Counted from the stretch's first letter, positions 19,497 through 58,292 are shown. The stretch: 64,000 nt of DNA from an uncultured Verrucomicrobiota bacterium (GCA_964555235.1 CAZKRU010000001.1:7915-71914), one strand, 5' to 3'. Translations and numbers: made by a program. Notes: generated from the letters alone by a model not told the origin.

Positions 19497-19516
19497 AGGC
19501 GGGAGCCGGAATCGAA
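19497..19516. repeat. Distal att-like direct repeat (copy of tRNA-Cys 3' end)
   Basis: aggcgggagccggaatcgaa is identical (20/20) to 58221-58240, i.e. the T-loop through the discriminator of the tRNA. Identity stops at 19517. Confidence 0.75.
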
Positions 19517-19609
19517 AGATCTTGCTTAATTTTTTGTTACTATAAACTATTTTTGAGAGGAGAACAAGCCATATAGTACGCTTAACAAAACTTAAAATCA
19601 CATAGCCAA

Positions 19610-19629
19610 TACTGGCAAATTTACTGGCA
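19610..19629. repeat. TACTGGCA-N4-TACTGGCA arm-like site at distal island end
   Basis: tactggcaaatttactggca lies 94 bp inside the distal att repeat. Related copies are at 18179-18198 and 58158-58177. Confidence 0.55.
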
Positions 19630-19692
19630 CGAACCCGATGCCGCAGGAGTTACGAAAAATTATTATTCCAGTCATCACCATAAGTTCAGAGA

Positions 19693-20301
19693 TCAACTCT
19701 TCAAGCCTTCACTAATCGCTTTTGCTCGAGAATAAAGCGCATCATTACCAATGACCCGTATCCACTTAAGTGCCTCGGATATTTCCGAAGTAGTCGCATC
19801 CAGCGCAATCAAGTCTTGGACATGACGCCGCCCCTTTTGTCCCTCGCAAGCTGCATACAATTTCAAACTGATGAGATCCTGACGACTGGCAAAACATATC
19901 GTTAAACAAGGACCATAATCGACCCTCTTTGCTCGAAGTTGAATTCCCTCAGGAAGCGGCAAATCCAAAAGCGGCATCGCTTGATGATTCACCCAATCGG
20001 ACTGGGCGTTCAAATCCCGGGCCGTTTCCGTAACCAGATGGCAAAAACCTTCAGGCAGCGGATTGCGTGTGATTTCCCCCTGATCAAGAACCGCAACAAC
20101 ATCCACATCACGGGTCGTCCTTGAAATTCCATGTTGAAGAATCAAATCCGCACCACCCACCACCAGTAATGAAAGCGGAGAATGATCCACAAGTGCCATC
20201 TTTCGACCCAAACGAATCAGGAGAGCCTCGATCTCCTCCCTGGAATGAACCTCCCGCATTGACTCAAACCCGTTCCACAGGCTTGAACGAACCATCAACA
20301 T
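19693..20301 (-). CDS. Nucleotidyltransferase-fold protein (AbiEii/DUF6036-like), cassette copy B
   Basis: 202 aa with 9 substitutions relative to copy A, all from residue 69 onward. The hGG...DxD signature is the same. Confidence 0.75.
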   Translation of the reverse strand: MLMVRSSLWNGFESMREVHSREEIEALLIRLGRKMALVDHSPLSLLVVGGADLILQHGISRTTRDVDVVAVLDQGEITRNPLPEGFCHLVTETARDLNAQSDWVNHQAMPLLDLPLPEGIQLRAKRVDYGPCLTICFASRQDLISLKLYAACEGQKGRRHVQDLIALDATTSEISEALKWIRVIGNDALYSRAKAISEGLKS

Positions 20302-20503
20302 CCCAATGTTTTTCTTGCTTCATACGCACCTGTCGAGTAGGCGCCTCAGGAAACCGCTTGGGATTTGGAAAATCATTAAGGGCAATCACCCAAAAAGCAG
20401 AGGACTGGCGATCCCACAATCCAATATGGGAATTGCGCCCTTCCCCTCGATACCAAACTCCATCCTCCAGAGCTTCCATCGAAAAATATGTCTCGGTTGC
20501 CAT
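20264..20503 (-). CDS. Small protein of unknown function coupled to NTase gene, copy B
   Basis: 79 aa, identical to 18833..19072. Confidence 0.6.
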   Translation of the reverse strand: MATETYFSMEALEDGVWYRGEGRNSHIGLWDRQSSAFWVIALNDFPNPKRFPEAPTRQVRMKQEKHWDVDGSFKPVERV

Positions 20504-20790
20504 ACTCGAACTCTAGCATAGCCTTTGAGAAGTGTCGAGCCGATCAAAAACATCTTCAAGTCAGTGTGGATATGATCCGGCGAGTGCTGAAAGGCCTTCA
20601 AAAAGAAAAATCCGTGATCTGCATCGAAAAAGGACAGCAGGCTAAATGGAAAAAGGCCAATTAGGTAATGAATTGGGTAATGAGCAAGAAGAATCCCGAG
20701 CCTTTAAGGATTTTTCGACTGAAGGATTGATTTTGATTTAACGGAATGCCCGAGAAACATTTGACGAGGGGAGATCTCATCCATCACAAT

Positions 20791-20878
20791 ACGTAGCAGG
20801 CCATGACCTGCGGAGTTTTCCTTTTTTGAGGAGCTTGCCGACGAGATCGTAAAAATGGGCCCCATTTTTACTATGCTC
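20791..20878. repeat. Left arm of ~88-bp imperfect inverted repeat
   Basis: acgtagcaggcc...gtaaaaatgggccccatttttactatgctc matches the reverse complement of 21694-21778 at ~75-80% by eye. It contains the palindrome GTAAAAATGGGCCCCATTTTTAC (20849-20871). Confidence 0.6.
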
Positions 20879-21140
20879 ATTGTTGACAAAATGGGGCATT
20901 TTTTGACCCATTTAGCAGGCTTCCGGTTCCTGTTCCACACCTCTCTCCGAAGCCAAAACGGGCAACTTGCCCGCTCCCTCCACCTCGGCCGCAAGAGGCG
21001 AGACGGAGCGGTTGCCAATCATCCGCAACAGGGCAATACCTCGAATTCACTCTTTTTCAGCCTTGTGAAAGACTGATAAAAAATCCTCAGACGTCTCTCC
21101 TAAGCTCCCGCTTGAGGGGCGGAACCACATCCACAAAAGA

Positions 21141-21693: not shown

Positions 21694-21778
21694 GAGCATA
21701 GCAAAAATGGGCGCCATTTTTGCCTTCTCGTCATTCCTCCTCAAAAAACCGGACTCCACAGGTCTGGGCCTGCTACGT
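21694..21778. repeat. Right arm of ~88-bp imperfect inverted repeat
   Basis: Contains GCAAAAATGG-gcg-CCATTTTTGC (21701-21723). AGAAATGGT-c-ACCATTTCT lies just upstream (21667-21685). Confidence 0.6.
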
Positions 21779-21927: not shown

Positions 21928-22614
21928 CTAGCCAACCGCTAATTCTTGTAATCGATCGAGGACCATCGGAATCCGATTTTGATTGCCGGGCCCCGCCGGA
22001 AAATGTCCCGGCAGAGCTTCACGAAAAGCATTGTTCTTCAACAAAATTGAAAATTCCGCCGCCAAATAGAGCCTTAAATCGGCGGGACCTTGACGGACTT
22101 CGGCAACAATTCCTGAGCGACCATCGACAACAGCCAAGAGATCTTCCAGATCATGACTGGCAAAATAGTCTCCCTCGCCGCGATCTTTGAACGCCTCCAG
22201 TTTTGTCGCCAGAAAGTATTTCGCTTCAATAATTGGAGCCATTTGGTCCGGGCTCACCTGTTTATTTGAAGCACTTGCCAATGCTTCCCGAAACCAGCGA
22301 GACCGTAATCCCAAAACAGTGGAATCAATCGGCATCACATCCACTTTGCAATTTTCGATCAGGTAACGGCAAATCGGAGCCCCTTCAGAAGTGTCGTTCA
22401 CGAAGCCATCCCTCCTCAATCGCGATTCAAGTTTGGCGTAGCTCGCCTGCGTTGTGACTTCGACAATTGCATCCACATCTTTGGTTGGACGAATCTCGTG
22501 CAGTTCCGGATGATCCATCAGCAACGGAACAATGCTACCACCCAAAAAGCCATGAGGAACCTCGAGCCGTTGCAAACGGCGGGTAACAATGGCAATGGAT
22601 TCAACCGGACTCAT
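21928..22614 (-). CDS. Nucleotidyltransferase-fold protein, AbiEii-like toxin candidate
   Basis: 228 aa with the NTase motif FLGGSIVPLL...RPTKDVDAIVEV and KLEAFKDRGEGDYFASHDLEDLL near the C-terminus. A 4-nt ATGA overlap links it to the upstream gene. Confidence 0.8.
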   Translation of the reverse strand: MSPVESIAIVTRRLQRLEVPHGFLGGSIVPLLMDHPELHEIRPTKDVDAIVEVTTQASYAKLESRLRRDGFVNDTSEGAPICRYLIENCKVDVMPIDSTVLGLRSRWFREALASASNKQVSPDQMAPIIEAKYFLATKLEAFKDRGEGDYFASHDLEDLLAVVDGRSGIVAEVRQGPADLRLYLAAEFSILLKNNAFREALPGHFPAGPGNQNRIPMVLDRLQELAVG

Positions 22615-23162
22615 TCAGACACCGTCTGGGCTTCTCCTAACGATTCCAATCGTTGGCGCAATTCCGAAGCAGCCATGTTCCGTTCACGCGCTCGACCCTC
22701 CCTCAAGGCATCCACTAAGGCCAATAATTCATAAAGCTTTGAATCTCGACGGGCGGCATAAGGTACATTCGAGAAGAGCGGTTCCAAGGCATAACCACGA
22801 ACCTTGCCTTCCGCATCAGGCCAAACAGGGGACAGATCTTTTCCTTTCTCTTGCTGAAGCTGGTCACATAAGGGTGGAGCGGCATAGGAGGTCGGCATTC
22901 CTCGGGTGGGAGCGCCACGACGCGCCGGGAAAGCATATTTGACCCCGTGAAGTAGATATTCGAGGAGCGCACTGACTCGAGGCCTTTTTGCCTTTAAATC
23001 AAACAACCCGGCCTCAGAAGCCCTGCGGCTAGCTCCATGAACTTCTCCCACGCTCATTCCCAATTCTCCTGCCATTTCGGCATAGGTTCGCAACGTGGGC
23101 ATCGAGAGCCACTTGAGCAGAACTACCACATCTTGAGATTTCGCAGTCACACTTATATTCAT
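22611..23162 (-). CDS. Winged-HTH-like partner protein, AbiEi-like antitoxin/regulator candidate
   Basis: 183 aa. The N-terminal segment TYAEMAGELGMSVGEVHGASRRASEAGL looks like an HTH. The gene is translationally coupled to the NTase gene. Confidence 0.65.
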   Translation of the reverse strand: MNISVTAKSQDVVVLLKWLSMPTLRTYAEMAGELGMSVGEVHGASRRASEAGLFDLKAKRPRVSALLEYLLHGVKYAFPARRGAPTRGMPTSYAAPPLCDQLQQEKGKDLSPVWPDAEGKVRGYALEPLFSNVPYAARRDSKLYELLALVDALREGRARERNMAASELRQRLESLGEAQTVSE

Positions 23163-23225: not shown

Positions 23226-26200
23226 CTAAAACCGACTGGTAACGCCCAAATCCAACTGATGAGAACAAGACTCTAAGTTGACGCGGGCTTCATAGCCAAA
23301 GTTGAGTGTTGTCGTTTCGCTAAATCTGAGTTGGAATCCGGCTCCCGGAATGATCATCTCCCGCCCTGCTCCTTCTGGATGCACGGTAAAGGCATCGCCT
23401 CCTGCGGCAAACTGGGCGCGAATCTCGTTTGGTTTCTCCCATTGATGCGAACCCATCAGTCTAAGTTCCGGGATCCATTTCCAGCCGTTGTAGTTAAACG
23501 GACGACTCACTCGCATTCCGGCTCCCGTCTCTGCGGAGGCTCCCGCTTGAGAACCAAGATTCAATCGCGCTGCGGAGCCCCGCTCCTTGTATTTCTCAAT
23601 CCATTGATACCCGTAGTCTAGTTTTGCGATTGGGCCCCAGACCCATTCCTCCGCCTGAAAATCGACTCCTCCGACGATTTGTCCTGATAAATCATACCCT
23701 TGCGTTGAGCCTGATGCGGTCTCTCCGATAAATCCAATATTTCGTTTCGTATCAAAGCTCGTTGTTCCTGCTCCGAGACTTCCATTCAAATAATACCCGT
23801 TCTTGTGGTACCCTCCGTAGATTCCGATTCTTCCGGAATTTGCCTCCACCGATCCTCCGCCCCCTCCAAGTTTCGTGTCGGCGTACCCTTGACCTGCAAA
23901 GAACCCGGCCGTTACTTCTTTCGTTAGTTCCTGATCAATCCCTGCCGTGATTCCTCCCAATCGGTTCTCATACCCGATCCTTCTTTCATCCGAATCGACA
24001 TCCGAGTAGCTCCCGGTCGTATTCACAAAGAATCCGGTCTTTCCTGAAAACTTCTTCTTCGGGATCAGGATTGCTCCCTTTTCGACGGCGAGCAGTTCAT
24101 TTTCATAATCTCCATCGAGCGTTTGAAGGGTGATTCCATTCAGACTGACTCCTCGATCTCCCCATCGGATCTGACTTAGTCTTTGGTTTGTTCCGCTGTT
24201 ACTGATGCTTCCGAACTGTTTCACCGTCGCACTCATCGCCGTTAACTTTTCAGGACTCAATTGATCGTAGGCCGTCTTTAATCCGCTGTTGTCTTGCCGC
24301 ATCAATCCATTGAAGATCTTTCCGACATCACTCGTTGCGGTGACTCCCGAACTTCCTGCTACCGTTCTGGCATCAATCGCTGCCGGACGAAAACTTTGCA
24401 AGGCTCGACCGACGGAGTTCTGGTTTGAATTGAATCCGGAGACATTTCCAAAATCTGCAGGAACTGCGAAGAGATTCACTTCCGTGTTCCGATACTCCGG
24501 CATCCAGCTCACTCCGTTGCCATTGCCTGAAAAGTCATACGACTGAAACGAGCCTGTCACCGAGGAGGCCGTCAGGAAGGTGACTTTCGTTCCGAACTGA
24601 GGAACGAAGTTTGTTGAACCAGAGAAGATCGTGAACCCTTGCAAGGTTCCTCCATTGATGACAGCAGCTCCTCCGACTTGCGTTTGATCGTAAAAACCAC
24701 TTCCGTTTCCAGCGGTCGCTCCGTCGATTTCAATCAGAAGCGAGCCTCCGGGATTGATGGTGAGAGAACCGACTTGTTGGATCCCGGGGGAATTTCCCGG
24801 ACTGTACAGTGCTCCGCTATTAATCACGAGATCTCCGGAGATCGTTCCACGTCCCTTCAGGGTTCCTCCGTTCGCCACGACGTTCCCTGCCCAATTCCCA
24901 CCCGCTGACGTTCCGATCGTGAGCGTTCCTGAGTTGACCGTCGCCATCCCCGTTGAGGTGTTTGCTCCAATGAGCGTTTGAGATCCCGTTCCGGTTTGCG
25001 TAATTCCAGTGGTACCCCCATAAGCGGTCGCGTCAGGCGCGAGCTCCAAGTTATTCGCCGACAAACTTACGGTTAGACTGATCGTATTTGCATTGTACAC
25101 CAGTGCACCCGAAAATCCTCCTCCCGCGATTGTGACCGCCCCCAGTTCATTGGTAAATCCATGTGCAGTTGCCGTGGTTCCAGAATCACTGAAAAAATCG
25201 TAAAGGGTAAAACTCCCGGCAGCAAAACCAGCTCCTTGATTGATCGTGATCGCATTACTGTTCAATACGACTTCGCCATTACTGTAATTAAAGAAGCGAA
25301 CTTTATCGCTCGTCGTTCCCAACGTGAAAACAAAGGTGGAGCCTGAATCAAAGGTCGTTGATCCTGCCAGCGCCGCTGCAGCATTATCGAAAACGAGCGA
25401 CTGATTTCCATTCCCCGGGGTTACGGTTCCTGAAAAATGCAACTGCCCAGTACTCCCATTCGCTACCGTGATCGTGCGACTTGTGTTACCGGTCGAAAGA
25501 TTGCCCAAGGTCATATTCGCTCCTGTTAAAGTAAAGGTCGGATTACCGGTGAGTGTGGTTGCGCCAAAAATAAGCCCGGCGGTTCCTGAAGTGACATTCG
25601 CTCCTTTGTTCACCGTCAACGGATTGGTGCCGACGGAGAGCGTCCCCATCGTGTGATTAATTCCGGCTCCTGCAGTGGCCCGATCAATGGTAATCGTGGT
25701 ATCTCCTGAGCTTGCCGCATTGACGGTAGTATTATTCCCAAAAGTCGTCGCCGTATCATTCGTTAAAGTTAACGTCCCCTTATTCAGAGTGAGTACCCCT
25801 TTCGTCCCCGTTTGCCCGAGTGAGTTTCCATCCCGAAGATCGATTTGATCCCCGGTATTCACTCCATTCAGCACGAGTGTCCCCGTAAAACCGGTATTGG
25901 CGGCGCCAATCAACATCTTCACGGTATTTGTCCCATTCGTCGACCCGCTAAAGGTCAAGGTATTGCCGCCCACCAATTGCCCGGCGGTGTTCAATTGAAA
26001 GACCGTTCCCGCGAGAGAGGTAATTTGAATCTCTCCATTGCCCCCTGAAAAATCGAGCACACGACTCGCCCCCAAAGTAAAGTTGTTCGCGCGAAATCTT
26101 CCCCCACCAAAAATCAAATCATTGGCGGCATCTCCCAACCGGCCATCATTCAGAGTAACTAGCGTCCCCCCATTGAGGAGCCAGTTTCCGGTGAACGTAT

Positions 26201-26690
26201 GCACGGCCGCTGTCGTAATTAACCTCGCGGTTGAGGTCCCTTGAATGGTCACATTGGCCGCATTCGATAGAATCCCACCAATATTGACATTCCCAGTCCC
26301 CGTACTGTTAAAAGTGACATTCCCTAAAAGCGAAATGGCTTGGTTAATTTGAAAAGTACCAGCGGTATTGCTCACCACGCTCCCTCCGCTCGCGAGCGAG
26401 AAGGTGTTGCCCGTTAAAGTAAGCCCTCCACCGGTTGAGAGCGTGAGACTATTCAAAGTAAGTCCAACAAGATCCTGTGATGTCGGATCAAACGTTGCCG
26501 CACTTGAATCCAAGGTAACATCATCCCCATTCGCCGGCACACCGCCCGTCCAGTTTCCACCCGTCGACCAAAGGGAATCAGTGGAAACTAAAGGATTCCA
26601 AGTTACCGAAGCCGCATTCATTGGAACATTAAACCCTATGAGGCAGAAAACAGACCAAAAAAGGGGCTTACAGCTTCGATACGTGATCAT
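23226..26690 (-). CDS. Autotransporter adhesin-like protein (beta-strand-repeat passenger + C-terminal beta-barrel)
   Basis: 1154 aa with a signal peptide. The passenger carries many G/T/N-rich repeats of autotransporter-associated beta-strand type (e.g. TGNWLLNGGTLVTL, GGTLKGRGTISGDLVINSG). The C-terminal ~280 aa have alternating-residue barrel character and end ...LDLGVTSRF. Confidence 0.9.
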   Translation of the reverse strand: MITYRSCKPLFWSVFCLIGFNVPMNAASVTWNPLVSTDSLWSTGGNWTGGVPANGDDVTLDSSAATFDPTSQDLVGLTLNSLTLSTGGGLTLTGNTFSLASGGSVVSNTAGTFQINQAISLLGNVTFNSTGTGNVNIGGILSNAANVTIQGTSTARLITTAAVHTFTGNWLLNGGTLVTLNDGRLGDAANDLIFGGGRFRANNFTLGASRVLDFSGGNGEIQITSLAGTVFQLNTAGQLVGGNTLTFSGSTNGTNTVKMLIGAANTGFTGTLVLNGVNTGDQIDLRDGNSLGQTGTKGVLTLNKGTLTLTNDTATTFGNNTTVNAASSGDTTITIDRATAGAGINHTMGTLSVGTNPLTVNKGANVTSGTAGLIFGATTLTGNPTFTLTGANMTLGNLSTGNTSRTITVANGSTGQLHFSGTVTPGNGNQSLVFDNAAAALAGSTTFDSGSTFVFTLGTTSDKVRFFNYSNGEVVLNSNAITINQGAGFAAGSFTLYDFFSDSGTTATAHGFTNELGAVTIAGGGFSGALVYNANTISLTVSLSANNLELAPDATAYGGTTGITQTGTGSQTLIGANTSTGMATVNSGTLTIGTSAGGNWAGNVVANGGTLKGRGTISGDLVINSGALYSPGNSPGIQQVGSLTINPGGSLLIEIDGATAGNGSGFYDQTQVGGAAVINGGTLQGFTIFSGSTNFVPQFGTKVTFLTASSVTGSFQSYDFSGNGNGVSWMPEYRNTEVNLFAVPADFGNVSGFNSNQNSVGRALQSFRPAAIDARTVAGSSGVTATSDVGKIFNGLMRQDNSGLKTAYDQLSPEKLTAMSATVKQFGSISNSGTNQRLSQIRWGDRGVSLNGITLQTLDGDYENELLAVEKGAILIPKKKFSGKTGFFVNTTGSYSDVDSDERRIGYENRLGGITAGIDQELTKEVTAGFFAGQGYADTKLGGGGGSVEANSGRIGIYGGYHKNGYYLNGSLGAGTTSFDTKRNIGFIGETASGSTQGYDLSGQIVGGVDFQAEEWVWGPIAKLDYGYQWIEKYKERGSAARLNLGSQAGASAETGAGMRVSRPFNYNGWKWIPELRLMGSHQWEKPNEIRAQFAAGGDAFTVHPEGAGREMIIPGAGFQLRFSETTTLNFGYEARVNLESCSHQLDLGVTSRF

Positions 26691-26846
26691 TGTGGTGGCT
26701 TTCTACAGCTTAACCGATACTAACCTAAGCCTTTATCTCAGCACTTTCAAGCCATTCAAATTATCTTCCCCCAGCCCGCAGCCTCCCCCCCCCTCATCAT
26801 GAATACTTGCGAAGTTGATGGCACTTACACCAATGAAAAAAGATCA

Positions 26847-27485
26847 CTACCGCCGAAATGAGCGAATATTTCCAGTAAGGGAGTCGATCTGTATGGTAAA
26901 AAAATTAACGAGTGTCGATGCCCGCTTATCGCGATCCACCACCAACGTCACATAGTTTTCATTGCTCCCCAAGTCCGTTGAGCCATTGGGATTGAAGGAA
27001 AAACTCCGATAGCGATAGTTGCTCCCATAAACCCCTACATTGGGCGAATTCCGATCAGGAAACATCTCAGGATGGAGATTAGAAAAAAGGAGCGGCGACG
27101 CTTCCTCCCAAAGAGCGATGATCACTGGAGGGGGGAAATATTCCACTTTGGTCAGTGGCGTCGGCCGCTTCTCTTCCGAAAGAAAAAGCTGAAATGCAGC
27201 GTAGCCGGCCGGAGGAGCTGAGACCGCCTTTCCTGACTCAGGAAGCATGTAAAATCGCACTTCCACCGGCAAGCCGCGAGCCACTGCCGTTTGATGCGCC
27301 AAGTTGAGCTGATCGAACAAACGACGCCCACTCTGATTTAATTGATATGCCCTCATGACCCCTCCGATTGAAGGAACTGTCACTGCGGCAATCACTCCAA
27401 TAATCACCAGTACCACCAGCAATTCAATTAACGTGAAGGCGCTCCTGCATCGCCCTCCTGCCTGTTTTTGAGAAATCCGATTCAT
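26847..27485 (-). CDS. Prepilin-type N-terminal methylation-domain protein (GspH/FimT-like minor pseudopilin)
   Basis: 212 aa with RSAFTLIELLVVLVIIGVIAAV, followed by QLNLAHQTAVARGLPVEVRF. Confidence 0.8.
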   Translation of the reverse strand: MNRISQKQAGGRCRSAFTLIELLVVLVIIGVIAAVTVPSIGGVMRAYQLNQSGRRLFDQLNLAHQTAVARGLPVEVRFYMLPESGKAVSAPPAGYAAFQLFLSEEKRPTPLTKVEYFPPPVIIALWEEASPLLFSNLHPEMFPDRNSPNVGVYGSNYRYRSFSFNPNGSTDLGSNENYVTLVVDRDKRASTLVNFFTIQIDSLTGNIRSFRR

Positions 27486-27488
27486 TGC

Positions 27489-32311: not shown

Positions 32312-32321
32312 CGAGTCACGA

Positions 32322-34447: not shown

Positions 34448-34459
34448 CGAGAATCAACC

Positions 34460-38556: not shown

Positions 38557-38562
38557 TGTAAC

Positions 38563-39561: not shown

Positions 39562-39636
39562 TAGCCTTTGGACTTGCTAAGCCCTACAGACTGCTAGGCT
39601 TTTTCTACAAGAAAAAGCTCCCAACCCGAACACCTC

Positions 39637-41184: not shown

Positions 41185-41225
41185 CCCTCCCTTCACTCTG
41201 GAGTGATTCGAGCGGAACGAAGTGG

Positions 41226-43723: not shown

Positions 43724-43730
43724 TCATCCC

Positions 43731-44543: not shown

Positions 44544-44558
44544 AGTAATGATACTCCT

Positions 44559-46541: not shown

Positions 46542-46607
46542 AGAGGAGTCCTTTTGTTGCAACTTAAGATGAGTTTGCGAGAAAAACCCAACGCAGTCAA
46601 TATTAAC

Positions 46608-46622
46608 TATCATATGATAATT
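46608..46622. promoter_or_regulatory. TTATCATATGATAAT-type palindrome upstream of the GH/esterase/dehydratase/MFS operon
   Basis: ctatcatatgataat (14/15), ~70 nt upstream of the preferred start at 46541. A TTGACT lies 6 nt downstream on the coding strand. Confidence 0.5.
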
Positions 46623-46643
46623 TATTCTGTTTTTCGTGATTAT

Positions 46644-46682
46644 CCCCGGCCTTGACGGTTTTTTAACCGTGCAAGACCGGGG
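46644..46682. terminator. Long imperfect hairpin between S8 protease gene end and next operon
   Basis: The structure is CCCCGG-c-CTTG-a-CGGTT-tttt-AACCG-tg-CAAG-a-CCGGGG. A T-rich tract follows on the plus side only. Confidence 0.4.
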
Positions 46683-46720
46683 AGGATTGTTTGTTTTGAC
46701 TTACTATTGGATTTCCAATT

Positions 46721-49576: not shown

Positions 49577-49672
49577 ACTTTTGTCCTATTTTTGTTGCTT
49601 GGGTTTTTAAAATTGCAATGACTTCGTTCAAGAAATAACAAAAAAACGGATTCGGTCAATAAATATATTTTT

Positions 49673-49687
49673 TTATCATATAGTAAT
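49673..49687. promoter_or_regulatory. TTATCATATGATAAT-type palindrome in S8/GH36 divergent intergenic region
   Basis: ttatcatatagtaat (13/15). Confidence 0.4.
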
Positions 49688-49877
49688 GAAGCCCTCCCTC
49701 AACTCCTCCCAGCGCCCCTGCGAGATTTAAAAAATCAGGAACGAGGAGCCCCTCAAAAAACGACGGAGGAAGCGAGAACTCCGGATTTGGCGAGAGAAAA
49801 GATCCACCGATCATCCCGCCGACTCGAAAGAAATGGTGAGATAAAAAATCTTTTCTAAGCTGCATTATCTGATATTG

Positions 49878-49892
49878 TTTTCATATGGTAAA
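49878..49892. promoter_or_regulatory. Degenerate TTATCATATGATAAT-type site at GH36 gene start
   Basis: ttttcatatggtaaa (12/15). It contains the ORF-track ATG at 49885. Confidence 0.3.
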
Positions 49893-51858
49893 TTCCTCCC
49901 ACTTTCCTTTCCTCGCACTCAACCGCAACAGCCAAACCCGACGACAGCGCGCCCCCCAGGGCGACTGGATCCATGTTCGGAAGGATTTCAACTCAACAAA
50001 AACCTCCCGACTTTTTTCTCTTCCCCCCTCCTGTCGTTGGATGGCGCTGCGACGAACCAATCTCTACTGGATGCAACCCGCATTTGGCTCCGCCCTCGAT
50101 ACAATCCCCCCAGAGACTCAATTTCTTCTTTTCCAACAAAAGAAGACCTACACCCTTTTTTTGCCGCTCATCGAAGGAGATCTGCGCGCGACCCTGAAAG
50201 GAAATGGCCCTCACGTGGAGATCGCCTTTGACGGGGCACTTCCCGACTCAGTACCAAAATCAATGCGCGCCCTCTACATGGCCTCCGGTCGCGAGCCTTT
50301 TACACTGATCCGCGACTCCATGAGCACGCTTTCGAGAGAGATGAAGTCATTCCGGCTCCGTGAAGAGAAGCCGGCTCCGGAATTTCAAGATTACTTCGGC
50401 TGGTGTACCTGGAACGCCTTCTACGACAAAGTCGATGAGCGAAAAATGGACGCCGGACTTCAATCGTGGAAAAAGGGCCGTTTCATTCCCAGCCTCGTTC
50501 TCCTCGATGACGGATGGCTCGATCGCAAGGTCGATCTCCTCAACGATTTTCCCGCCGACAAAAAAAAGTTTCCCCGAGGCCTCGCTTCGCCCGCCCGAAT
50601 GCTAAAAGAGAAATATGGAGTCAAGCGATTCGGAATCTGGCACGCCTTTCAGGGCTACTGGGCCGGATTAAATCCAGACGGGGCCCTGGCCAAACGCTAC
50701 CGGACGACCCCCAATCAGGGAAAAATGCGACCGTGGGAGAAAGAAAATGAGAAAGTCATGGAATTAAACCTCGTTCATCCCGACGAGATCTATCGCTTTT
50801 ATCATGAATTTTATCGTTACCTCAAAAGTCAGGGCGTAGAGATGGTTAAAGTCGACGGACAATCGTCACTTGAAGTTTTTTGTCGAAATGTTCTAGGGCG
50901 AGTCAGCGCCATGCGCGCCTATCAGGAGGCATTCCAAAGCGCCGGCGCTTCCGCTTTCGGATCAAACCTCCTTCACTGTATGTCCCACAGCAGCGACGTG
51001 ATTTATCACTCAAATCTCTCCAACTGCATCCGCAATTCAGACGATTATTTTCCCCAAAAAGAGAATTCCGCACAACAGCTTCACCTTCAAATAAACGCCT
51101 ACAATGCCCTCTGGATCAGCCAAGTGGCAGTTCCGGATTGGGATATGTTTCAAAGCCATCATCCTCATTCCTCCTACCATGCTGCCGCCCGCGCCATCAG
51201 CGGCGGACCGATTTATGTCTCAGATAAACCAGGAAAACAGAACTTCCGCCTCCTCGAAAAACTCGTCTGGTTTGAAAATGGAGACACCCGAACCCTCCAA
51301 TGCCCTAATCCGGCATTGGTCACTCGCGATCGACTGATGACCGATTGCACCCAAGAGCCCAAGCTCTTAAAAATCTTTAATCAGGTCCACGGAATCGGAC
51401 TCCTCGGATTTTTTCACACAAATAAATCGGGAGACCGAATTCAGGACTCATTCAAACCGACGGATGTCGAGAATCTCAAGGGAGCTCTGTTTGCCGTCTG
51501 GCGACATCGGGCTGAGACCTTGGAAATCCTCACTCGCCGACAAGCCTCCAAGCAAATTTTAAAAAATACCGAGTGGGAACTTGCCATCATCTCCCCAATC
51601 CATCACCAGACCGCAATCCTGGGGCTTTTGGACAAATATAATAGCCCCGCTGGAATTGAAAAAGTCGAGTCGTCCAAAAGCTGTCTTAAATTCGAAACGA
51701 AAGACGGAGGAAGAGTCGGCATTTATTGTCGCCATAAACCCCTCCAATTGATGCTTAACGGCTGTAAAACAACGTTCAACTATCATCCCAAAACAGGACT
51801 TCTTGTCATTTCACTTCCTAAGCGAAAATCATCCACGGTAGTCGTGATACTAAAATAA
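49885..51858 (+). CDS. GH36-clan raffinose synthase/Sip1-like alpha-galactosidase
   Basis: 657 aa with YFGWCTWNAFY, VLLDDGW, MVKVDGQ, RNSDDYFP and VPDWDMFQS, all characteristic of the raffinose-synthase/Sip1 branch. The exact start is uncertain. Confidence 0.85.
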   Translation: MVNSSHFPFLALNRNSQTRRQRAPQGDWIHVRKDFNSTKTSRLFSLPPSCRWMALRRTNLYWMQPAFGSALDTIPPETQFLLFQQKKTYTLFLPLIEGDLRATLKGNGPHVEIAFDGALPDSVPKSMRALYMASGREPFTLIRDSMSTLSREMKSFRLREEKPAPEFQDYFGWCTWNAFYDKVDERKMDAGLQSWKKGRFIPSLVLLDDGWLDRKVDLLNDFPADKKKFPRGLASPARMLKEKYGVKRFGIWHAFQGYWAGLNPDGALAKRYRTTPNQGKMRPWEKENEKVMELNLVHPDEIYRFYHEFYRYLKSQGVEMVKVDGQSSLEVFCRNVLGRVSAMRAYQEAFQSAGASAFGSNLLHCMSHSSDVIYHSNLSNCIRNSDDYFPQKENSAQQLHLQINAYNALWISQVAVPDWDMFQSHHPHSSYHAAARAISGGPIYVSDKPGKQNFRLLEKLVWFENGDTRTLQCPNPALVTRDRLMTDCTQEPKLLKIFNQVHGIGLLGFFHTNKSGDRIQDSFKPTDVENLKGALFAVWRHRAETLEILTRRQASKQILKNTEWELAIISPIHHQTAILGLLDKYNSPAGIEKVESSKSCLKFETKDGGRVGIYCRHKPLQLMLNGCKTTFNYHPKTGLLVISLPKRKSSTVVVILK

Positions 51859-52101
51859 ACGCGATTGGAACTTGAAGCCATTCCTTGCAAACGGATAGAC
51901 CAAGAAAAGAAGGGCTCAAGAGATAATATTAGGAGTTGGAGTCCCCGTTACAAAAGCGACGAAAGAAACACTCCCGCGTTCAAAATGACGAATAAAAATC
52001 GGTGTTTTAAAACCTCACTCATTGACTCTTAGTGTAACACGCAAGCCAATGATGGCAATTGCGCTATGATTGAAAATCCGAGTCCTCTTCCTACCTCCCT
52101 C

Positions 52102-52881
52102 TCAGCTTCCACCCCTATTCAATGGCTCCATAGGCGTCTCATCCGCAATTTTCTGCAACCGCTCCGCTTCTTCCTTTTTCAAGTCCGGCAATACCCCTTT
52201 TTTATTGATCTTCGGCCCCACAATCTGATGGGGCATTCCGACACTGGGCTGTCCAAAGAACGAACGGTAAAAAACACAGGCCGCCAAATATCCCCCATGC
52301 GTCGTTGGATGATGGCTATCCCGATACAACTGAAACGGAGGATTCTTCCCCGGCCCCATAAAAGCCAGCCAAGCGGGCCCCACTGGCACCACTCCCACAT
52401 TCAACTCTTTTCCGAGCGAGGTGTAGGCCTCCTGAAGGGGAGCCATCTCCTCCTGCTTAATTTCCGTCGGCACCTGATTATAGACCGGCCAGGTCATATA
52501 TAAAACCGTCTGAGCCCCGGCTTTTTTAATTTCTGCATCAAACATCCGGACATATTTGTTCATATCCTCCCGATGATCCTTCGGGTAGGTCGCCTTCTCC
52601 TGCAATACCACGTAATCCCATTTCTCACTCTTGATTTTCGCCAACGCCTCCCCTTTCTCCCAATGCTGCTGCAAACAGGATGCCCCGATTAAACTTGTAA
52701 AAAACTCAAACTCTCGCCCGGAGGATTTCGCCATCGCCGCAATGATCGGAGGAATCTCCCCCGCGCCAATGAGACTGTTCCCAATAAACATCACCTTGAG
52801 TTTTTTGGGAGCGGAATCCTCAGAATATCCCGAGAGCGGAAGAAGCCACAGGAGAAGCAATACGAACGATGTTATTTTCAT
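52102..52881 (-). CDS. Secreted SGNH-like hydrolase (DUF4886-like)
   Basis: 259 aa with a signal peptide, KVMFIGNSLIG (GNS in place of GDS) and YRDSHHPTTHGGYLAA (DxxH region). Confidence 0.7.
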   Translation of the reverse strand: MKITSFVLLLLWLLPLSGYSEDSAPKKLKVMFIGNSLIGAGEIPPIIAAMAKSSGREFEFFTSLIGASCLQQHWEKGEALAKIKSEKWDYVVLQEKATYPKDHREDMNKYVRMFDAEIKKAGAQTVLYMTWPVYNQVPTEIKQEEMAPLQEAYTSLGKELNVGVVPVGPAWLAFMGPGKNPPFQLYRDSHHPTTHGGYLAACVFYRSFFGQPSVGMPHQIVGPKINKKGVLPDLKKEEAERLQKIADETPMEPLNRGGS

Positions 52882-52908
52882 GAATGTGATTTCGCCTAAA
52901 GTGAACGG

Positions 52909-53505
52909 TTATTCTGAAAAATCGACCGTGAACTGGGAGTTCGCAGGATTTTTTACAAAGTCACAACGCATCTGATAGACGAATTTTTTAGATCCCTTTG
53001 TCCGACTATCTTGCAGCCCAAACCAAGCAGCTGAGGTCTGAATACTGAAATGCGCTCCCATGGCGTCCGTAATCGTAATCCGACGAGGCTTGCCCTGTTC
53101 CAAATACTGATCATTACTCTCAATCGGAAAGGGAACCGCCTCTTTGCCAGCAATCGAATATTTTCCACCGAGATTAAATTTGGAGGGAAGATTGACCTGC
53201 CACTTAAAAGCCTTCGATCCTTCCGGAACGCCAGAGTAGGTAAAAGTGATTCTAGCACCATCAATTTTGGCATTGAGTTTCGCTCCACACGGATAAGTGG
53301 CGTCACCCGTCGAAGGATCAAATGCGGGTTGCTCGATCTTCGTCTCCCCCAACATCAAATTAGGAACCGTCATCAGAAACTCTCCCATTCCTGGAGCACT
53401 CAAAACGATTCCTTTTCCTCCGAATGAGAGCTGGGGAGATTCTGCAAAAAGAGAGCTTACCATTAAAGTAAAGCCGCCGATGACTGCCAGTAGTATTTGC
53501 TTCAT
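52909..53505 (-). CDS. Secreted hypothetical protein
   Basis: 198 aa with signal peptide MKQILLAVIGGFTLMVSSLFA. It sits in an operon position between a GH gene and the SGNH-like gene. Confidence 0.6.
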   Translation of the reverse strand: MKQILLAVIGGFTLMVSSLFAESPQLSFGGKGIVLSAPGMGEFLMTVPNLMLGETKIEQPAFDPSTGDATYPCGAKLNAKIDGARITFTYSGVPEGSKAFKWQVNLPSKFNLGGKYSIAGKEAVPFPIESNDQYLEQGKPRRITITDAMGAHFSIQTSAAWFGLQDSRTKGSKKFVYQMRCDFVKNPANSQFTVDFSE

Positions 53506-53557
53506 TTTATTTTCCTTGATTGTAATTGAGCTGTTATCTGACCTCGATCAAAACCGA

Positions 53558-55804
53558 TTAATTCGTTGCCAACTTTGCCCGCCCCCATTTACCTCGATCC
53601 ACTGAATTCTTTCCCGTTCCATTCCAAACCAAAGCCTGTTTGCGGCGCTCCCCATCGTCACTATTATTCACCGCCACATCAAAGAGGAGTTCCTTCCCAT
53701 CCGCAGGAGTGATCCCCATCACTTTCCACGGAATCGTCGCCACCAGTGTATATCCGTCACCGGAGACTTCCCTCACCACCAAAGCACTGCAGTCTCCTGC
53801 ACCTGCCTCATTTCCTGCAACGAAGATCTCAGGTTTCTCACCGCTTGCGCTGATGCTAATATGCCGATCCGTAAATAACATCGGCCCCCCTTCATCGGGT
53901 TTCTGGTCGCCGACAAAGATTTCAATTCCATCGCCCAGCCAAAGCTTCTTCCCCTTTTGTTGATTCTTCATCGGGATCGGATCCTTAACCAGAATATGAA
54001 GATATAAATTCGTCACATCCCAACATAAACGAAAATCCGCTCTAAAATCATCGGATGGCTTTCCTTCAACAATACGAGTCCCATCAATGGAATCCGCCGG
54101 ACGTCCCGGCCAATTTGCCGTGGTTCCATCCAGTTTGATCCCAGGAAGCGATTGCGCAATGGAAAGCACCTTCCTGGAAGTCCCCATCTCCTTGGCAGTA
54201 AACCGCGGATCATCAAAATGAAACGGCGCCTTCTCCCCCATCATAATTGCATAAATCTGATCATTCGACAGCTTCGCTTGGGATACCAGCTCTTCATAGG
54301 GACGATCCACCACATTAATCAGTCCGATATTATTCCCCTCTCCATTAAATCCCTCAAAAAAGCGTCCTGTGATTGATTGATCCATATAGCTGAACCATTC
54401 GGAACCGACGACATAAGGAAGTGCAGCGGAAGATTCCAAATAATTGCGATAGGCCAGTCCACGCTCATTCTGATTTCTAACTTCCTTGCGCGCCAGCAAC
54501 CCCTGATCATCCGCACAGAAATGCCACTCACTCAAAATAATCGGCTTTCCCCCACTACGCTCGTGAACCTTCTTTAAAAACGATTCCTCAATCGCATAGG
54601 TATAATAATTAATACTCAGCACATCCAAATATTTCCCTCCCGCACGAACCACAATCTCACTCCCCGCCGTTCCCGCCGTCCAGCGACTTCCAATCAGCAA
54701 ATGATTCGAATCGTGCTTGCGGTAAACCCGATGAATCAATGAGTAGTAAGTCTCCATGAAAAGCTCAAAGAATTCCTTCATGTCCTGAGCCCCTGCCTCC
54801 GTACGAATGAACAACGGCTGATCTTTTAATTCATCAAAGCTTGCAAACGGTTTCGCTGGATTCCATGCCTCGTTAAATTTTTGGATCTCTCCATATTTTT
54901 TCTGGAGCAACTCAACCAACCGTAACTTTGATGCACAGGTGCTTTTGTAAGTCGGAATCAACTTCGGAATATTTTCAAAATGCTGTTCATTTCCCAAAAA
55001 GTATCCGATGAGCAGCGGATCCGAAGCACCGGGAGCAAGGGCCTTGGCAAAGGCGTCATCCAGCGCTTTTTCATTCCCGGGCGCAAACGGATCTAATAAT
55101 TTGGACGCCCCGATCTTATCCGGAAACAACTGAATCCCTGGAATTTTTCCCGACGGCAAATGCGCCACGTACGGAAAGTTAAGACCCTGCATCACTCCAG
55201 GCGAATAGCGGGAAAAGGCCCCCGCGCTGTTAAATCCCCAGGCACGAAGCCGTTCTACCGTTTGACGGCCAAATTCCTCGGGGTCATACGATTTCCCAAA
55301 TTTACGAATCCAATTCGCAATATAAAATGACATCACTCCCGCAGGACCTTCCGGTCGCCAGACCCTCGCAAACTCCCCCTTCTTTTCCGGAATCCACTCG
55401 TACGTCGTCTCCCGACCATCAACCAGCGTGTAATCATCAATATTGGCATTCACTCCACACGGTCCAAGGTGAAAGAACACATTCCCTTCGGGAGTCACCA
55501 AAACCAGACGCTCTCCTGCCTTTTCAACATGAAAAAAACCGGTCTTTTTTAGCTTATACTTTTCACCGCTCCCAGAGAGCCCACCAAACTTATCCAATGC
55601 CGTCGGTCCTGCCTTGGGGAGCTCTCGCTTCTGCTTCTCCACATCCGCTTTTAATTCCTCCTCACTCGTAATCTTATCAGGATAATTTTTCCTGACGCTC
55701 TGACCAAAGCGATCCACAATAAAGCTACCACTTGGAGCGGATTGCGCGAATTCCGCACCCAAAATAAGCCCGACGACCCCCAAAAGGAGCGCATTATTTA
55801 TCAT
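53558..55804 (-). CDS. Secreted GH-A-like glycoside hydrolase (same catalytic family as the tandem array) with C-terminal CBM9-like domain
   Basis: 748 aa. LIGYFLGNEQHF and PIILSEWHF are colinear with the NE and E motifs of the array paralogs. The C-terminus has FRLCWDVTNLYLHILVKD...GDGIEIFVG. Confidence 0.88.
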   Translation of the reverse strand: MINNALLLGVVGLILGAEFAQSAPSGSFIVDRFGQSVRKNYPDKITSEEELKADVEKQKRELPKAGPTALDKFGGLSGSGEKYKLKKTGFFHVEKAGERLVLVTPEGNVFFHLGPCGVNANIDDYTLVDGRETTYEWIPEKKGEFARVWRPEGPAGVMSFYIANWIRKFGKSYDPEEFGRQTVERLRAWGFNSAGAFSRYSPGVMQGLNFPYVAHLPSGKIPGIQLFPDKIGASKLLDPFAPGNEKALDDAFAKALAPGASDPLLIGYFLGNEQHFENIPKLIPTYKSTCASKLRLVELLQKKYGEIQKFNEAWNPAKPFASFDELKDQPLFIRTEAGAQDMKEFFELFMETYYSLIHRVYRKHDSNHLLIGSRWTAGTAGSEIVVRAGGKYLDVLSINYYTYAIEESFLKKVHERSGGKPIILSEWHFCADDQGLLARKEVRNQNERGLAYRNYLESSAALPYVVGSEWFSYMDQSITGRFFEGFNGEGNNIGLINVVDRPYEELVSQAKLSNDQIYAIMMGEKAPFHFDDPRFTAKEMGTSRKVLSIAQSLPGIKLDGTTANWPGRPADSIDGTRIVEGKPSDDFRADFRLCWDVTNLYLHILVKDPIPMKNQQKGKKLWLGDGIEIFVGDQKPDEGGPMLFTDRHISISASGEKPEIFVAGNEAGAGDCSALVVREVSGDGYTLVATIPWKVMGITPADGKELLFDVAVNNSDDGERRKQALVWNGTGKNSVDRGKWGRAKLATN

Positions 55805-55812
55805 ATGATAAT
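55798..55812. promoter_or_regulatory. Perfect TTATCATATGATAAT palindrome containing the start codon of 53558..55804
   Basis: ttatcatatgataat (15/15). Upstream on the coding strand are TTGACA (reverse complement of 55835-55840), 16 nt, TAAGTT, 8 nt and then the ATG. Confidence 0.5.
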
Positions 55813-56163: not shown

Positions 56164-56634
56164 TTCCCGTCATCGTATTTTCCTAGCGGGCCTAGGCAGA
56201 TGTTACCCTCATGTAACTCAACCTGTAGCGGGAAGATTATGTGTCAACGATATTATCCAGCGCGATTCATTCCCTTTCGCTCCTCAAAATCCTCAAGGCA
56301 TTTCTAAATCTCTTCCAATTCACCTTTGATGATCAGCAAATTATTTTTATGCCCTTTACTCAAGTGATGTTTCGAGGTCAAGAAGCCGTGTTGATCCTCG
56401 GCTTGAAATGAAATAATTTTCTTCCGTCATACAAAAATTTTACATAAATCATCTTGATTGCCGACGTAATGCCTTTGAAGACATGAATCCACGCATCTCT
56501 TCGTTGACAATCTACTCGTTTAAGTTACCAGTAGCTATAGATACAAAGCGAAGTCACGCTTTCCTCCTCGAAAAATCAAGTTTTTCGCGGGTATTCCAAC
56601 CAACTACATTACAAATTAAAAATCGAGCAATCGC

Positions 56635-56964
56635 ATGTCAAAACAGTACGAAATTGAAGCCCACACCTTATTGACGGCGCAGCGATTGCCTGCCCAGCTT
56701 TATGCAAAAGAAGCCGCGTTTTTTCTTCGCATTAGTCCGGAAGATCTGAATCATCTTGCTGTAAATAAACTCATCAAACCGGTTGGGAAACCGACTCCGA
56801 ATGCGCCAAAGTACTATCTGACACAGGAAGTTCTCAGTAAATCCAACGATTCTGAATGGATGAATAAAATGAACGTCTTTTTAAGTAAACACCGTAGAGA
56901 CAAGAATCTCAAATATCGGAAAGACGAGCCCCAAGACGTAACTTCCGCAGAGCTTCCTCAATAG
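56635..56964 (+). CDS. Excisionase/AlpA-like HTH DNA-binding protein
   Basis: 109 aa. LYAKEAAFFLRISPEDLNHLAVNKLIKPVG resembles HTH_17/excisionase-type motifs. The gene is convergent with and abuts the integrase gene. Confidence 0.6.
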   Translation: MSKQYEIEAHTLLTAQRLPAQLYAKEAAFFLRISPEDLNHLAVNKLIKPVGKPTPNAPKYYLTQEVLSKSNDSEWMNKMNVFLSKHRRDKNLKYRKDEPQDVTSAELPQ

Positions 56965-56965
56965 C

Positions 56966-58060
56966 TTACATTGCCTCCACGATTCTCGTTGAAGCCGAGG
57001 GCTCTACTACACTCAAAAATGGAATGATTTTGGAGTTACCATTCTTTTCCCACTCCTCCAATGAGGGACAGATCACCTCCGCTCCTTCAGAATAGGCACG
57101 ATGAACGGCTTTTGAGCCGTGTCCCAGATTTGACATCGCCATTCGCTCTGGATACCCCGAAGTCTTGGCTCGCTGCGCCCAAGCATAGCGATATGAGTGA
57201 AGCGAAACCCCTTGAATTCCAAGTCCGGCGCAGCGCTGTTTAAATTCCGTGGAACGATCCCCGGCGCGGACTGAATTCAAATACGGGAAGAAATACCCTT
57301 GCGCGGGCAGTTTCCTCACAATTCCTTCCAAACGGGGCCCTATGCGGACTTTGGCCGGAGGCTGATCCTGCCCCGCGAGCTTCTTCCGATAAATAACCAA
57401 TATGTTCTCCCTCCAATCAATCGCCTCAGCGCTTAAACGGGCCGCGTCTCCTTGCGATGCTCCAGTCTCCCAAAGAAAATCGTAATACAACCGACGCTCT
57501 GAATTTCTTTCTCGATCGATAATACGAAAATGTTCGTCCAAAGTAATGGCTCGCCTCTTCTGGTGGCGAACCTTAGGCCATAGTTTCTTGGGCAAAACAA
57601 TCTTGGGAAGCCAATCCATATCGAGAGCAAAGTTATGGATTTTTCGCAAAAACATATTCGTGGAAATTCCGCCAAGACCCAAAACCTTGAGAATGTCCTC
57701 GCCCGTCGTATCGATTAATTTTTTGTGGCGAATCAGGTCAAACGCTGCGTCTTTCATGGCCGACTTTTTTCTCATCAGTGTCAATGGACCCCCGCTTTGA
57801 GCAAACGCATCCATGACCGTCTGCCAATTCCTTTGAGTCATCTCCGGATCGGAAACGCTCAGATAGGCAATGGCAATTTTCCGATTGATGATCGGATTGG
57901 CGTGCGCTTCGTTGTGAGAATGTAAAAGACGTTTGGCTTCTTCCTTGTCGGAAGTTTCCAAACTAAATTGCTTTCGAGTCAGGCAATCCTCCAAGTAGAA
58001 ACGTCCTGACGCTCTGCGGCGATATAACCGATATTTCGACATGATGCTCCCTCTTGTCAT
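56966..58060 (-). CDS. Tyrosine recombinase/integrase
   Basis: 364 aa with box II LHSYRYAWAQRA (HxxR) and LGHGSKAVHRAY (H...Y). The box I region reads WETGASQGDAARL, so the expected Arg appears to be substituted. The gene lies 160 bp from the 3' end of tRNA-Cys. Confidence 0.85.
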   Translation of the reverse strand: MTRGSIMSKYRLYRRRASGRFYLEDCLTRKQFSLETSDKEEAKRLLHSHNEAHANPIINRKIAIAYLSVSDPEMTQRNWQTVMDAFAQSGGPLTLMRKKSAMKDAAFDLIRHKKLIDTTGEDILKVLGLGGISTNMFLRKIHNFALDMDWLPKIVLPKKLWPKVRHQKRRAITLDEHFRIIDRERNSERRLYYDFLWETGASQGDAARLSAEAIDWRENILVIYRKKLAGQDQPPAKVRIGPRLEGIVRKLPAQGYFFPYLNSVRAGDRSTEFKQRCAGLGIQGVSLHSYRYAWAQRAKTSGYPERMAMSNLGHGSKAVHRAYSEGAEVICPSLEEWEKNGNSKIIPFLSVVEPSASTRIVEAM

Positions 58061-58135
58061 AAGCTAGAGCGATCACAGAAAAGCCCTTCATGGCTTCTGG
58101 CCGGTTAAACGCCGTTTGTGGGTGGTTTTATGGAA

Positions 58136-58177
58136 AAATTCCAAAACCGATCCCACGTACTGGCAATTCTACTGGCA
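58136..58177. repeat. 42-bp arm-like repeat between integrase gene and tRNA (contains TACTGGCA-N4-TACTGGCA)
   Basis: aaattccaaaaccgatcccacgtactggcaattctactggca matches 18157-18198 at 40/42 positions. Confidence 0.65.
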
Positions 58178-58220
58178 AACCAGCTCTTGGGGGCCATTTT
58201 TCCCTCTGGATCAGAGGGAG

Positions 58221-58292
58221 AGGCGGGAGCCGGAATCGAACCGGCGCATAGGGCTTTTGCAGAGCCCGGCCTTACCACTTGGCAATCCCGCC
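58221..58292 (-). tRNA. tRNA-Cys (anticodon GCA)
   Basis: The reverse complement is GGCGGGATTGCCAAGTGGTAAGGCCGGGCTCTGCAAAAGCCCTATGCGCCGGTTCGATTCCGGCTCCCGCC plus discriminator T. It has a 7-bp acceptor stem, anticodon loop CTGCAAA and T-loop TTCGATT. CCA is not encoded. Confidence 0.9.

Follow-up and report, generated by a model that had tools for sequence, protein, structure and literature searches.

A probable integrative island at a tRNA-Cys gene of an uncultured Verrucomicrobiota bacterium

We analysed a 64-kb stretch of the genome of an uncultured Verrucomicrobiota bacterium (GCA_964555235.1, CAZKRU010000001.1:7915-71914; hereafter the window, with positions counted from its first nucleotide). 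We consider it probable (roughly 0.8) that positions 19517 to 58220, here called island A, are an integrated element of a large, mostly verrucomicrobial family, the integrase of which is predicted to recombine an attP core corresponding to the last 17-20 nt of tRNA-Cys. In kind this is a classical integrase island and not a new system, and its neighbouring sequences indicate that it is probably the tRNA-proximal, first member of a partly decayed tandem array. A first-pass annotation of the same DNA had proposed an island between these limits; we examined it with ARAGORN for tRNAs and with Pfam, NCBIfam, PHROGs and PADLOC for proteins.

Attachment sites of island A

ARAGORN finds a single tRNA in the window, and it is the tRNA-Cys(GCA) gene that had been annotated as the island's target. 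The gene and the attachment (att) sites are arranged as follows:

58220-58292, minus strand: tRNA-Cys(GCA) (ARAGORN), the integration target, with its 3′ end toward the island
58221-58240, minus strand: attL core, the 3′-terminal 20 nt of the tRNA from the T-loop through the discriminator base, exactly repeated
58136-58219, minus strand: P arm of island A, with a hairpin (58202-58218), tandem repeat R″ and segment X′ (22 nt, 58136-58157)
19517-19629, minus strand: P′ arm of island A, with a 93-nt spacer (V) and then tandem repeat R′
19497-19516, minus strand: attR core, a 20-nt copy of the tRNA-Cys 3′ end

The 20-mer AGGCGGGAGCCGGAATCGAA (plus strand) is present in exactly two copies, at 19497-19516 and 58221-58240, in the same orientation. 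No further match occurs in the window at up to three mismatches, 0.01 matches are expected by chance, and the identity breaks off abruptly at both edges. These results confirm the recurrence of the tRNA 3′ end that had first drawn attention to the interval, and the possibility that the 20-mer lies at many loci does not apply in the window. In related elements, described below, the core fragment starts at the same point, (C)CGATTCC.

The arms on either side of the core carry the same short motif. R″ consists of TACTGGCA at 58158-58165 and 58170-58177 (plus strand, 12-nt period) and R′ of TACTGGCA at 19610-19617 and 19622-19629, such that, measured from the core, two copies of TGCCAGTA (plus strand TACTGGCA) stand at +44 on the attL side and two at −115 on the attR side. 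The motif occurs seven times in 64 kb versus 0.66 expected, and six of these seven occurrences are in att-related sites. Period-12 tandem repeats of at least 8 nt are similarly rare, with only six in 64 kb, four of them att-associated (18179, 19423, 19610 and 58158). For R′, the −115 position agrees with that of the corresponding repeat in related junctions (−117 to −122 in at least 12 of them). Because the same motif is found at family-typical distances at both ends, 19497-19629 appears to be the true attR for this integrase, and this is the strongest evidence that we have. The sequence thus supports a genuine attL/attR pair of a tRNA-Cys 3′-end-targeting integrase as the boundaries of 19497-58240. 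The arm repeats are expected to be integrase-binding sites.

The integrase and its partner

Just inside the tRNA end are the two genes that had been annotated as a tyrosine recombinase and an excisionase-like helix-turn-helix gene:

56966-58060, minus strand: tyrosine-recombinase integrase, 364 aa (PHROG_1, alignment A1, XerA profile alignment)
56635-56964, plus strand: 109-aa MerR/excisionase-type winged-helix protein, convergent with the integrase gene (fold and linkage)

The integrase gene starts 160 nt from the 3′ end of tRNA-Cys. Its product matches the PHROG_1 integrase (E=3.5e-14) and has more than 5000 homologues, mostly in Verrucomicrobiota, the nearest of which are 58-61% identical; most of them have a precomputed match to Pfam family PF00589. 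From this family of more than 5000 proteins we aligned the window protein with 16 homologues (alignment A1, 17 members). In A1 and in a profile alignment to XerA (5hxy), residues K227, H288-x-x-R291, H320 and Y323 are kept, and H314 aligns with the canonical LGH histidine. The window integrase is full length and retains all family-invariant columns of A1.

A profile scan with A1 over one genome per species returned 80 integrase loci, to which all counts out of 80 refer; 580 stretches were confirmed as related, and complete verrucomicrobial genomes with this integrase include OY969777.1 and CAWDIX010000002.1. Homologues of the 109-aa protein are present in 40 of the 80 loci, typically convergent with the integrase gene and 75 nt to ~4 kb downstream of it, and the 109-aa family comprises 574 representative clusters. 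The protein itself has no significant match in Pfam, PHROGs, NCBIfam or PADLOC, and a word-indexed homologue search recovered it alone, while sub-threshold Pfam matches to HTH_17 were seen in 7 of 50 family members. AlphaFold (AF2) with a 50-member alignment gave a model with a mean predicted local distance difference test (pLDDT) score of 90, consisting of a beta-alpha-alpha-beta-beta core and a long C-terminal helix (a single-sequence model with a pLDDT of 50 was discarded). In Foldseek this model matched MerR-family DNA-binding domains, with BldC at probability 1.0 (TM 0.75) and the excisionase RdfS at probability 0.94, at weak E-values (~0.05-0.2, best 0.045). At the level of fold and linkage the label "excisionase-like" is therefore supported, and the modelled protein is a candidate recombination directionality factor.

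Given these components, integration would have restored a full tRNA at attL (58221-58240), the displaced 20-nt copy ending up at attR (19497-19516); the repeat and the arm layout are observed. The integrase would bind the tandem TGCCAGTA sites, two on each arm, and together with its 109-aa MerR/Xis-type partner might excise the 38.7 kb as a circle. On excision, the attP junction (58220, core, 19517) should read GGATCAGAGGGAG + AGGCGGGAGCCGGAATCGAA + AGATCTTGC and the restored attB TTTGTAAATAAAAAA + AGGCGGGAGCCGGAATCGAA + CCGGCGCAT. Transfer between cells would then depend on a relaxase-bearing relative, plausibly through tandem arrays.

A family of related elements

At 33/80 loci the integrase has a full tRNA-Cys(GCA) gene of the same orientation 150-320 nt upstream, and other tRNAs (tRNA-Thr, Phe, SeC and Asn) are found at the integrase at 4/80. 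At least 21 of the 80 loci have, at the same distance, only a 17-18-nt fragment of tRNA-Cys (xxCGATTCCGACCCTCGCCTCCA) preceded by non-tRNA bases. Such a bare fragment indicates either that another element precedes those integrases in a tandem array or that their arrangement is attP-like.

Most loci examined share one att layout: after the core comes a hairpin, and at about +50 a motif of 9-13 nt is present twice with a 12-nt period. The motif itself varies between elements (AGTGCCAGC, AGCTCCAGCAAAA, ACTTCCAGTGA and others). At least 12 of the fragment-type junctions have a second period-12 repeat, located between −117 and −122 and in most cases built from another motif, which is the distal arm of the preceding element. 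One relative (L086, 9743-15514) is complete and small; it is inserted at tRNA-Asn, and the 3′ end of that tRNA recurs 5.7 kb downstream as a 27-nt direct repeat, the only distal repeat found in the related loci. Besides the integrase this element holds the 109-aa partner, and its tRNA is closely preceded by an ArsC-like gene. For the 80 loci as a whole, the search for a distal core covered 10 kb on either side of the integrase and found no second tRNA-Cys core, suggesting that large elements are usual.

A TrwC/MOBF relaxase-helicase gene lies 1-6 kb from the integrase at 20/80 loci (L020, L024-L027, L029, L030, L032, L034-L036, L046, L049, L053, L056, L057, L063, L065, L075 and L087). Two of these loci (L027 and L029) also have type I restriction-modification systems, and L032 has a ParA-like ATPase. 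The presence of a relaxase next to the integrase indicates that the family includes elements of the integrative and conjugative (ICE) or integrative and mobilizable (IME) type.

It is very improbable that the 20-nt repeat matches by chance or as a relic and that the integrase is merely a fixed, domesticated neighbour of tRNA-Cys with nothing mobile about it. Such a history might explain why tRNA-Cys is found beside this integrase across many verrucomicrobial lineages and why no tRNA-Cys relative has a repeat within 10 kb, but it is difficult to reconcile with the chance expectation of 0.01 for the repeat and with the agreement of the arm motifs on both sides at family-typical distances. Moreover, near-identical P arms and integrases stand behind a full tRNA in one locus (L032) and behind a bare fragment in another (L026), a genome may hold several copies, and the integrase is linked to relaxases.

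Many metagenome-assembled contigs stop close to or at the tRNA-Cys core, 70-420 nt upstream of the integrase (L010, L012, L031, L038, L043, L048, L051-L053, L056, L070, L074, L085 and L087), and a contig identical to the window (L004) starts inside the tRNA, at 58253. Populations that vary at this site, or arrays that confuse the assembler, would be expected to produce such breaks.

Sequences beyond attR

The DNA immediately outside attR also belongs to the att type, and two features can be distinguished there:

19423-19496, minus strand: P arm of a second element (element B), with a hairpin (19467-19484) and a period-12 repeat; integrase-less
18157-19128, minus strand: relic joint composed of module N (18199-19128), arm repeat R (18179-18198) and a P-arm piece X (18157-18178, 22 nt)

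The hairpin and T-run left of 19497 had been interpreted as the displaced terminator of the tRNA. We reject this interpretation, because a terminator scan made no call there and the sequence fits the P arm of element B, which appears to be decayed. The repeat of element B is TTTGTTATG at 19423 and 19435 (19423-19443), or two copies of CATAACAAA at +55 in integrase orientation. This layout matches the inter-element junctions of relatives, and the motif differs from that of island A. A tblastn search with 120 family integrases found no integrase remnant in 17600-19520.

In blastn comparisons, 18179-19128 is 95.7% identical to the distal end of the island (19610-20559), and 18157-18198 is 95% identical to the island's P arm (58136-58177). 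The two matches overlap in arm repeat R, indicating that the relic is a P′/P joint of the attP type that is without spacer, core and hairpin. Judging from its structure, such a joint would be the expected product of recombination between the arm repeats of a circle or of a tandem of the same type. The same joint is present in contigs of two other samples (L088 and L089). It sits beyond the arm of element B.

Module N and the distal end of the island each include a DUF6036 gene, and the two copies are mosaic: 410 nt are identical (18667-19076 versus 20098-20507) and the remainder is ~92% identical, which suggests recent gene conversion between the island copy and the outside copy. A simple tandem duplication of 1431 nt was considered and rejected, because the shared stretch is only 950 nt long. 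Neither of the two DUF6036 proteins, nor the leftmost 897-aa protein of the window, had a record when looked up.

With the arm of element B and the relic joint to the left of 19497, the DNA outside attR is not a clean chromosomal flank, and the mobile region may extend leftward out of the window. The mobile region might accordingly be larger than island A, namely a tandem array of island A, the relics of B and possibly the GH50-like (glycoside hydrolase family 50) gene cluster at 1-17.6 kb as older cargo, with a boundary left of position 1. We regard this as possible but doubtful. It would agree with the P arm of element B directly outside attR, with the attP-type relic joint at 18157-19128, with the frequency of arrays of differing elements in the family, and with the accessory-type, tandemly amplified genes of the left flank. 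On the other hand, the interval 1-17.6 kb shows neither a further tRNA-Cys core nor another period-12 arm repeat, the segment 17600-19520 is free of integrase remnants, and the left flank uses a different operator.

The left flank has four complete Agarase_CBM/GH42-like paralogues of ~897 aa within 1-13923, which are 64-74% identical in amino acid sequence. A partial fifth ~897-aa paralogue is cut by the start of the window; the array is locally amplified. The flank also has an esterase, a GDSL esterase and an S8 protease that is 44% identical to the S8 protease of the island. The different operator is the palindrome GATCACACG-N11-CGTGTGATC, found in the left flank only, upstream of the ~897-aa genes. 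It is part of an intergenic block at 3806-3938, 7252-7384 and 13973-14022 that is 96% identical over 133 nt.

Cargo of island A

The cargo of island A is arranged from the distal end toward the tRNA as follows:

19630-20559, minus strand: module N′, the DUF6036 module at the distal island end
19693-20301, minus strand: DUF6036 nucleotidyltransferase (Pfam, 29.5 bits versus a cutoff of 23.6 bits)
20301-20506, minus strand: 67-aa partner, forming a two-gene module with DUF6036
21928-23162, minus strand: PDC-M21A/B, a candidate defence or toxin-antitoxin pair (PADLOC, E=5.9e-44 and 3.5e-55)
23226-32780, minus strand: cell-surface cargo, a Verru_Chthon pseudopilin cassette and then an autotransporter
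23226-26690, minus strand: the autotransporter (autotransporter beta-domain, E=3.6e-48)
32780 down to 26847, minus strand: Verru_Chthon proteins B, C, A and D (NCBIfam TIGR02598, TIGR02599, TIGR02600 and TIGR02596)
33125-55804: polysaccharide-utilisation cargo of ~22 kb, probably for sulfated polysaccharide (Pfam and NCBIfam)

The N′ module is likely a toxin-antitoxin or stabilisation module, and PDC-M21A/B shows weak similarity to the AbiEii nucleotidyltransferase. Nucleotidyltransferase-type modules had been annotated just inside the far end of the island; two are indeed found there (19693-20506 and 21928-23162), but a second copy of DUF6036 lies outside the repeat. All four Verru_Chthon proteins score above their cutoffs (A, 948 versus 332; C, 277 versus 256.5; B, 65.9 versus 51.4; D, 113.9 versus 70). 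Together with the names of homologues, this cassette assigns the organism to Verrucomicrobiota.

The polysaccharide cluster includes two sulfatases, two glycoside hydrolase family 16 (GH16) proteins, NIF3, a LacI regulator, GH130 and a major facilitator superfamily (MFS) transporter. It also includes an enolase-superfamily dehydratase, an esterase, two glycosidases bearing carbohydrate-binding modules (CBMs), an S8 protease, a GH36-like enzyme and a DUF4886 protein. Pfam and NCBIfam thus bear out the autotransporter, pseudopilins, sulfatases, GH16, GH130, GH36-like enzyme and S8 protease of the earlier cargo assignment. Against the kappa-carrageenase model the GH16 proteins reach just 62-68 bits (cutoff 350), and no TonB-dependent receptor or SusD domain that would indicate a SusC/SusD pair was found by Pfam in any island protein.

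A palindrome, TTATCATATGATAA, occurs at seven sites at up to two mismatches versus 0.14 expected, and all seven are in 38414-55811. Several of the sites overlap start codons of cargo genes, and one set is in the divergent LacI/GH130 intergenic region. From this distribution, TTATCATATGATAA is likely the operator of a regulon private to the island. Operator motifs are the only feature that separates inside from outside, with TTATCATATGATAA in the island and GATCACACG-N11-CGTGTGATC in the left flank.

Neither relaxase nor secretion genes were found in the window by Pfam or PHROGs, and tblastn with the TrwC relaxases of relatives also gave nothing. When ten poorly annotated island open reading frames (ORFs) were compared with PHROGs, only the integrase matched, and the remaining island genes have metabolic and surface functions on Pfam. 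No conjugation genes and, the integrase aside, no phage genes were thus detected in the island, in agreement with the first-pass annotation. Its suggestion that mobility would need a helper is also reasonable, since the island has no relaxase and TrwC is carried by 20/80 relatives, which are the likely helpers.

Several small features lie near the distal end. Right after the duplicated module, 20560-20663 appears to be the 3′ end of a truncated gene (...KGQQAKWKKAN*). It is followed at 20664 by a period-12 tandem repeat of two copies of GGTAATGA (region 20560-20683), possibly one more relic arm site. Two inverted copies of a 26-nt repeat (20791-20816 and 21753-21778), 88% complementary to each other, flank ~1 kb with two ORFs that have no family match; this segment may be a small insertion element or a remnant of one.

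Evidence for and against import as a unit

A number of observations weigh against the view that island A was imported and is mobile. The integrase scores only 23.9 bits against PF00589, under the gathering cutoff of 27.1 bits, and 17/17 members of A1 have Ser or Ala in place of the canonical first arginine (TGxR). GC content is flat across the window. The tetranucleotide distance between the island and the left flank is 0.0092, with 0.0097 between the two halves of the island and 0.0108 between those of the left flank. The first-pass annotation had held that an island should show a compositional discontinuity at 19.5 and 58.2 kb, and none is seen in GC or tetranucleotides. There is no functional break at 19.5 kb either, as the left flank shares polysaccharide-degrading functions with the island. 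The metabolic cargo of the island is not shared by any relative within 10 kb of the integrase.

Searches for the empty tRNA-Cys site, the attP circle and the restored attB, which had been proposed as tests of the island, found none of them. An exact look-up of the flanking ArsC gene returned four contigs, and 4/4 carry the integrase. The attB pattern (outer hairpin plus the tRNA beyond the core) had 0 hits in genome and metagenome collections, the status of this hairpin as native flank having later become doubtful, and the attR/attP pattern of the circular form had 0 hits in metagenomes. No close relative was found with ArsC, homologues of which are at most 77% identical (the nearest about 75%).

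As regards the integrase, the whole family scores low and is without the first arginine, such that the weak Pfam score characterises the family and is no sign of decay. An arginine two residues before the lysine, in the beta-hairpin, is invariant in the family (R225-x-K227). In the integrase of CTnDOT (IntDOT), a downstream arginine stands in for the missing first one (PMC8138268). The integrase of island A resembles IntDOT in that it is without the first arginine in box I and has a conserved arginine further downstream (here R225 before K227). Unlike CTnDOT, the integrase targets a tRNA 3′ end here, and the likeness to IntDOT is by the description in PMC8138268.

Alternatively, the att sites and the integrase might be real but most of the 38.7 kb might not have been delivered in one event. 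A small integrase and toxin-antitoxin element could have accumulated native or other DNA, or arrays could have fused successively. This alternative would account for the lack of a compositional break, for cargo that is typical of the lineage (the Verru_Chthon cassette) and functionally continuous with the left flank, and for relatives that carry relaxase and restriction-modification genes and not carbohydrate-active enzymes (CAZymes). The internal relics near the distal end (the truncated gene at 20560-20663, the repeat at 20664 and the inverted repeats at 20791/21753) would also fit, as would the relic joint at 18157-19128, which shows that arm-to-arm deletions occur here. Nevertheless, we consider a piecemeal origin unlikely. 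The same motif is found on both arms at canonical distances, which indicates that excision by the integrase would today take out the whole interval. In addition, an operator motif is private to the island, large size is normal in the family (no second tRNA-Cys core within 10 kb at 80 loci), and elements that circulate in one lineage are expected to resemble their host in composition. For island A as an integrated element, the arm motifs and the behaviour of the integrase family thus uphold the boundaries first proposed from the tRNA duplication. We infer that all ~30 genes may have entered as one unit.

Relation to known elements

Island A follows the general pattern (PMC8138268) of tRNA-targeting islands, ICEs and IMEs with lambda-type tyrosine integrases, such as P4-like and SXT-like elements and NBU1 at tRNA-Leu. 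As in those islands, the integrase gene lies at the tRNA 3′ end, the distal end is marked by a direct repeat of that 3′ end, arm sites occur on both sides of the core, a small partner of putative MerR/Xis type is present, and the cargo is modular (toxin-antitoxin or defence, surface and metabolic genes). In contrast to those islands, the target here is tRNA-Cys in Verrucomicrobiota, the first-arginine position is Ser, the arm sites are strictly two-copy with a 12-nt period at about +50 and −118, and transfer genes are lacking.

Accretion into tandem arrays of ICEs with non-autonomous elements reportedly occurs in streptococci, in the model of ICESt3 and the cis-mobilizable elements (CIMEs). 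Here, too, differing elements share an att core and are arranged head to tail with core fragments between them, and a relaxase-less member could conceivably move in cis with a relaxase-bearing neighbour. Unlike in that model, the relaxase-less member here keeps its integrase and partner, and the neighbour is decayed and without a relaxase.

Mobile polysaccharide-utilisation loci are known from the porphyran and agarose loci on ICEs of Bacteroides. Island A is similar to these in being an integrative element with a gene block predicted to degrade algal-type polysaccharides; it differs in the absence of a SusC/SusD pair and in phylum and integrase family. Verrucomicrobiota have a major part in the breakdown of sulfated algal and host glycans, and to our knowledge the exchange of large glycan-degradation gene sets among them is poorly documented. 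If island A is mobile, the ~22-kb polysaccharide cluster and the pseudopilin/autotransporter cassette could travel between strains on a tRNA-Cys element. In that case, the att layout (core and period-12 repeats at +50 and −118) would also provide a simple rule for delimiting elements in the fragmented genomes of the phylum, in which contigs often break at the tRNA-Cys core.

We found no description of the family in the full-text literature searched, and it appears to be undescribed, with a few unusual traits. Tentatively, and with the odds somewhat against it, we propose that island A is one member of an undescribed, very large, tRNA-Cys-specific family that would range from relaxase-bearing ICE/IME forms to relaxase-less islands. 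Its hallmarks would be an integrase without the first arginine, a rigid two-copy arm code with a 12-nt period that differs by element, and frequent mixed arrays. Relaxase-less members would be moved in cis, and the family would be a main vehicle for the exchange of CAZyme/sulfatase clusters and surface cassettes in the phylum.

Right flank

To the right of the tRNA, 59724-60113 is a 129-aa ORF with a weak HisKA match and without a kinase ATPase domain, which may be a fragment of a histidine kinase.

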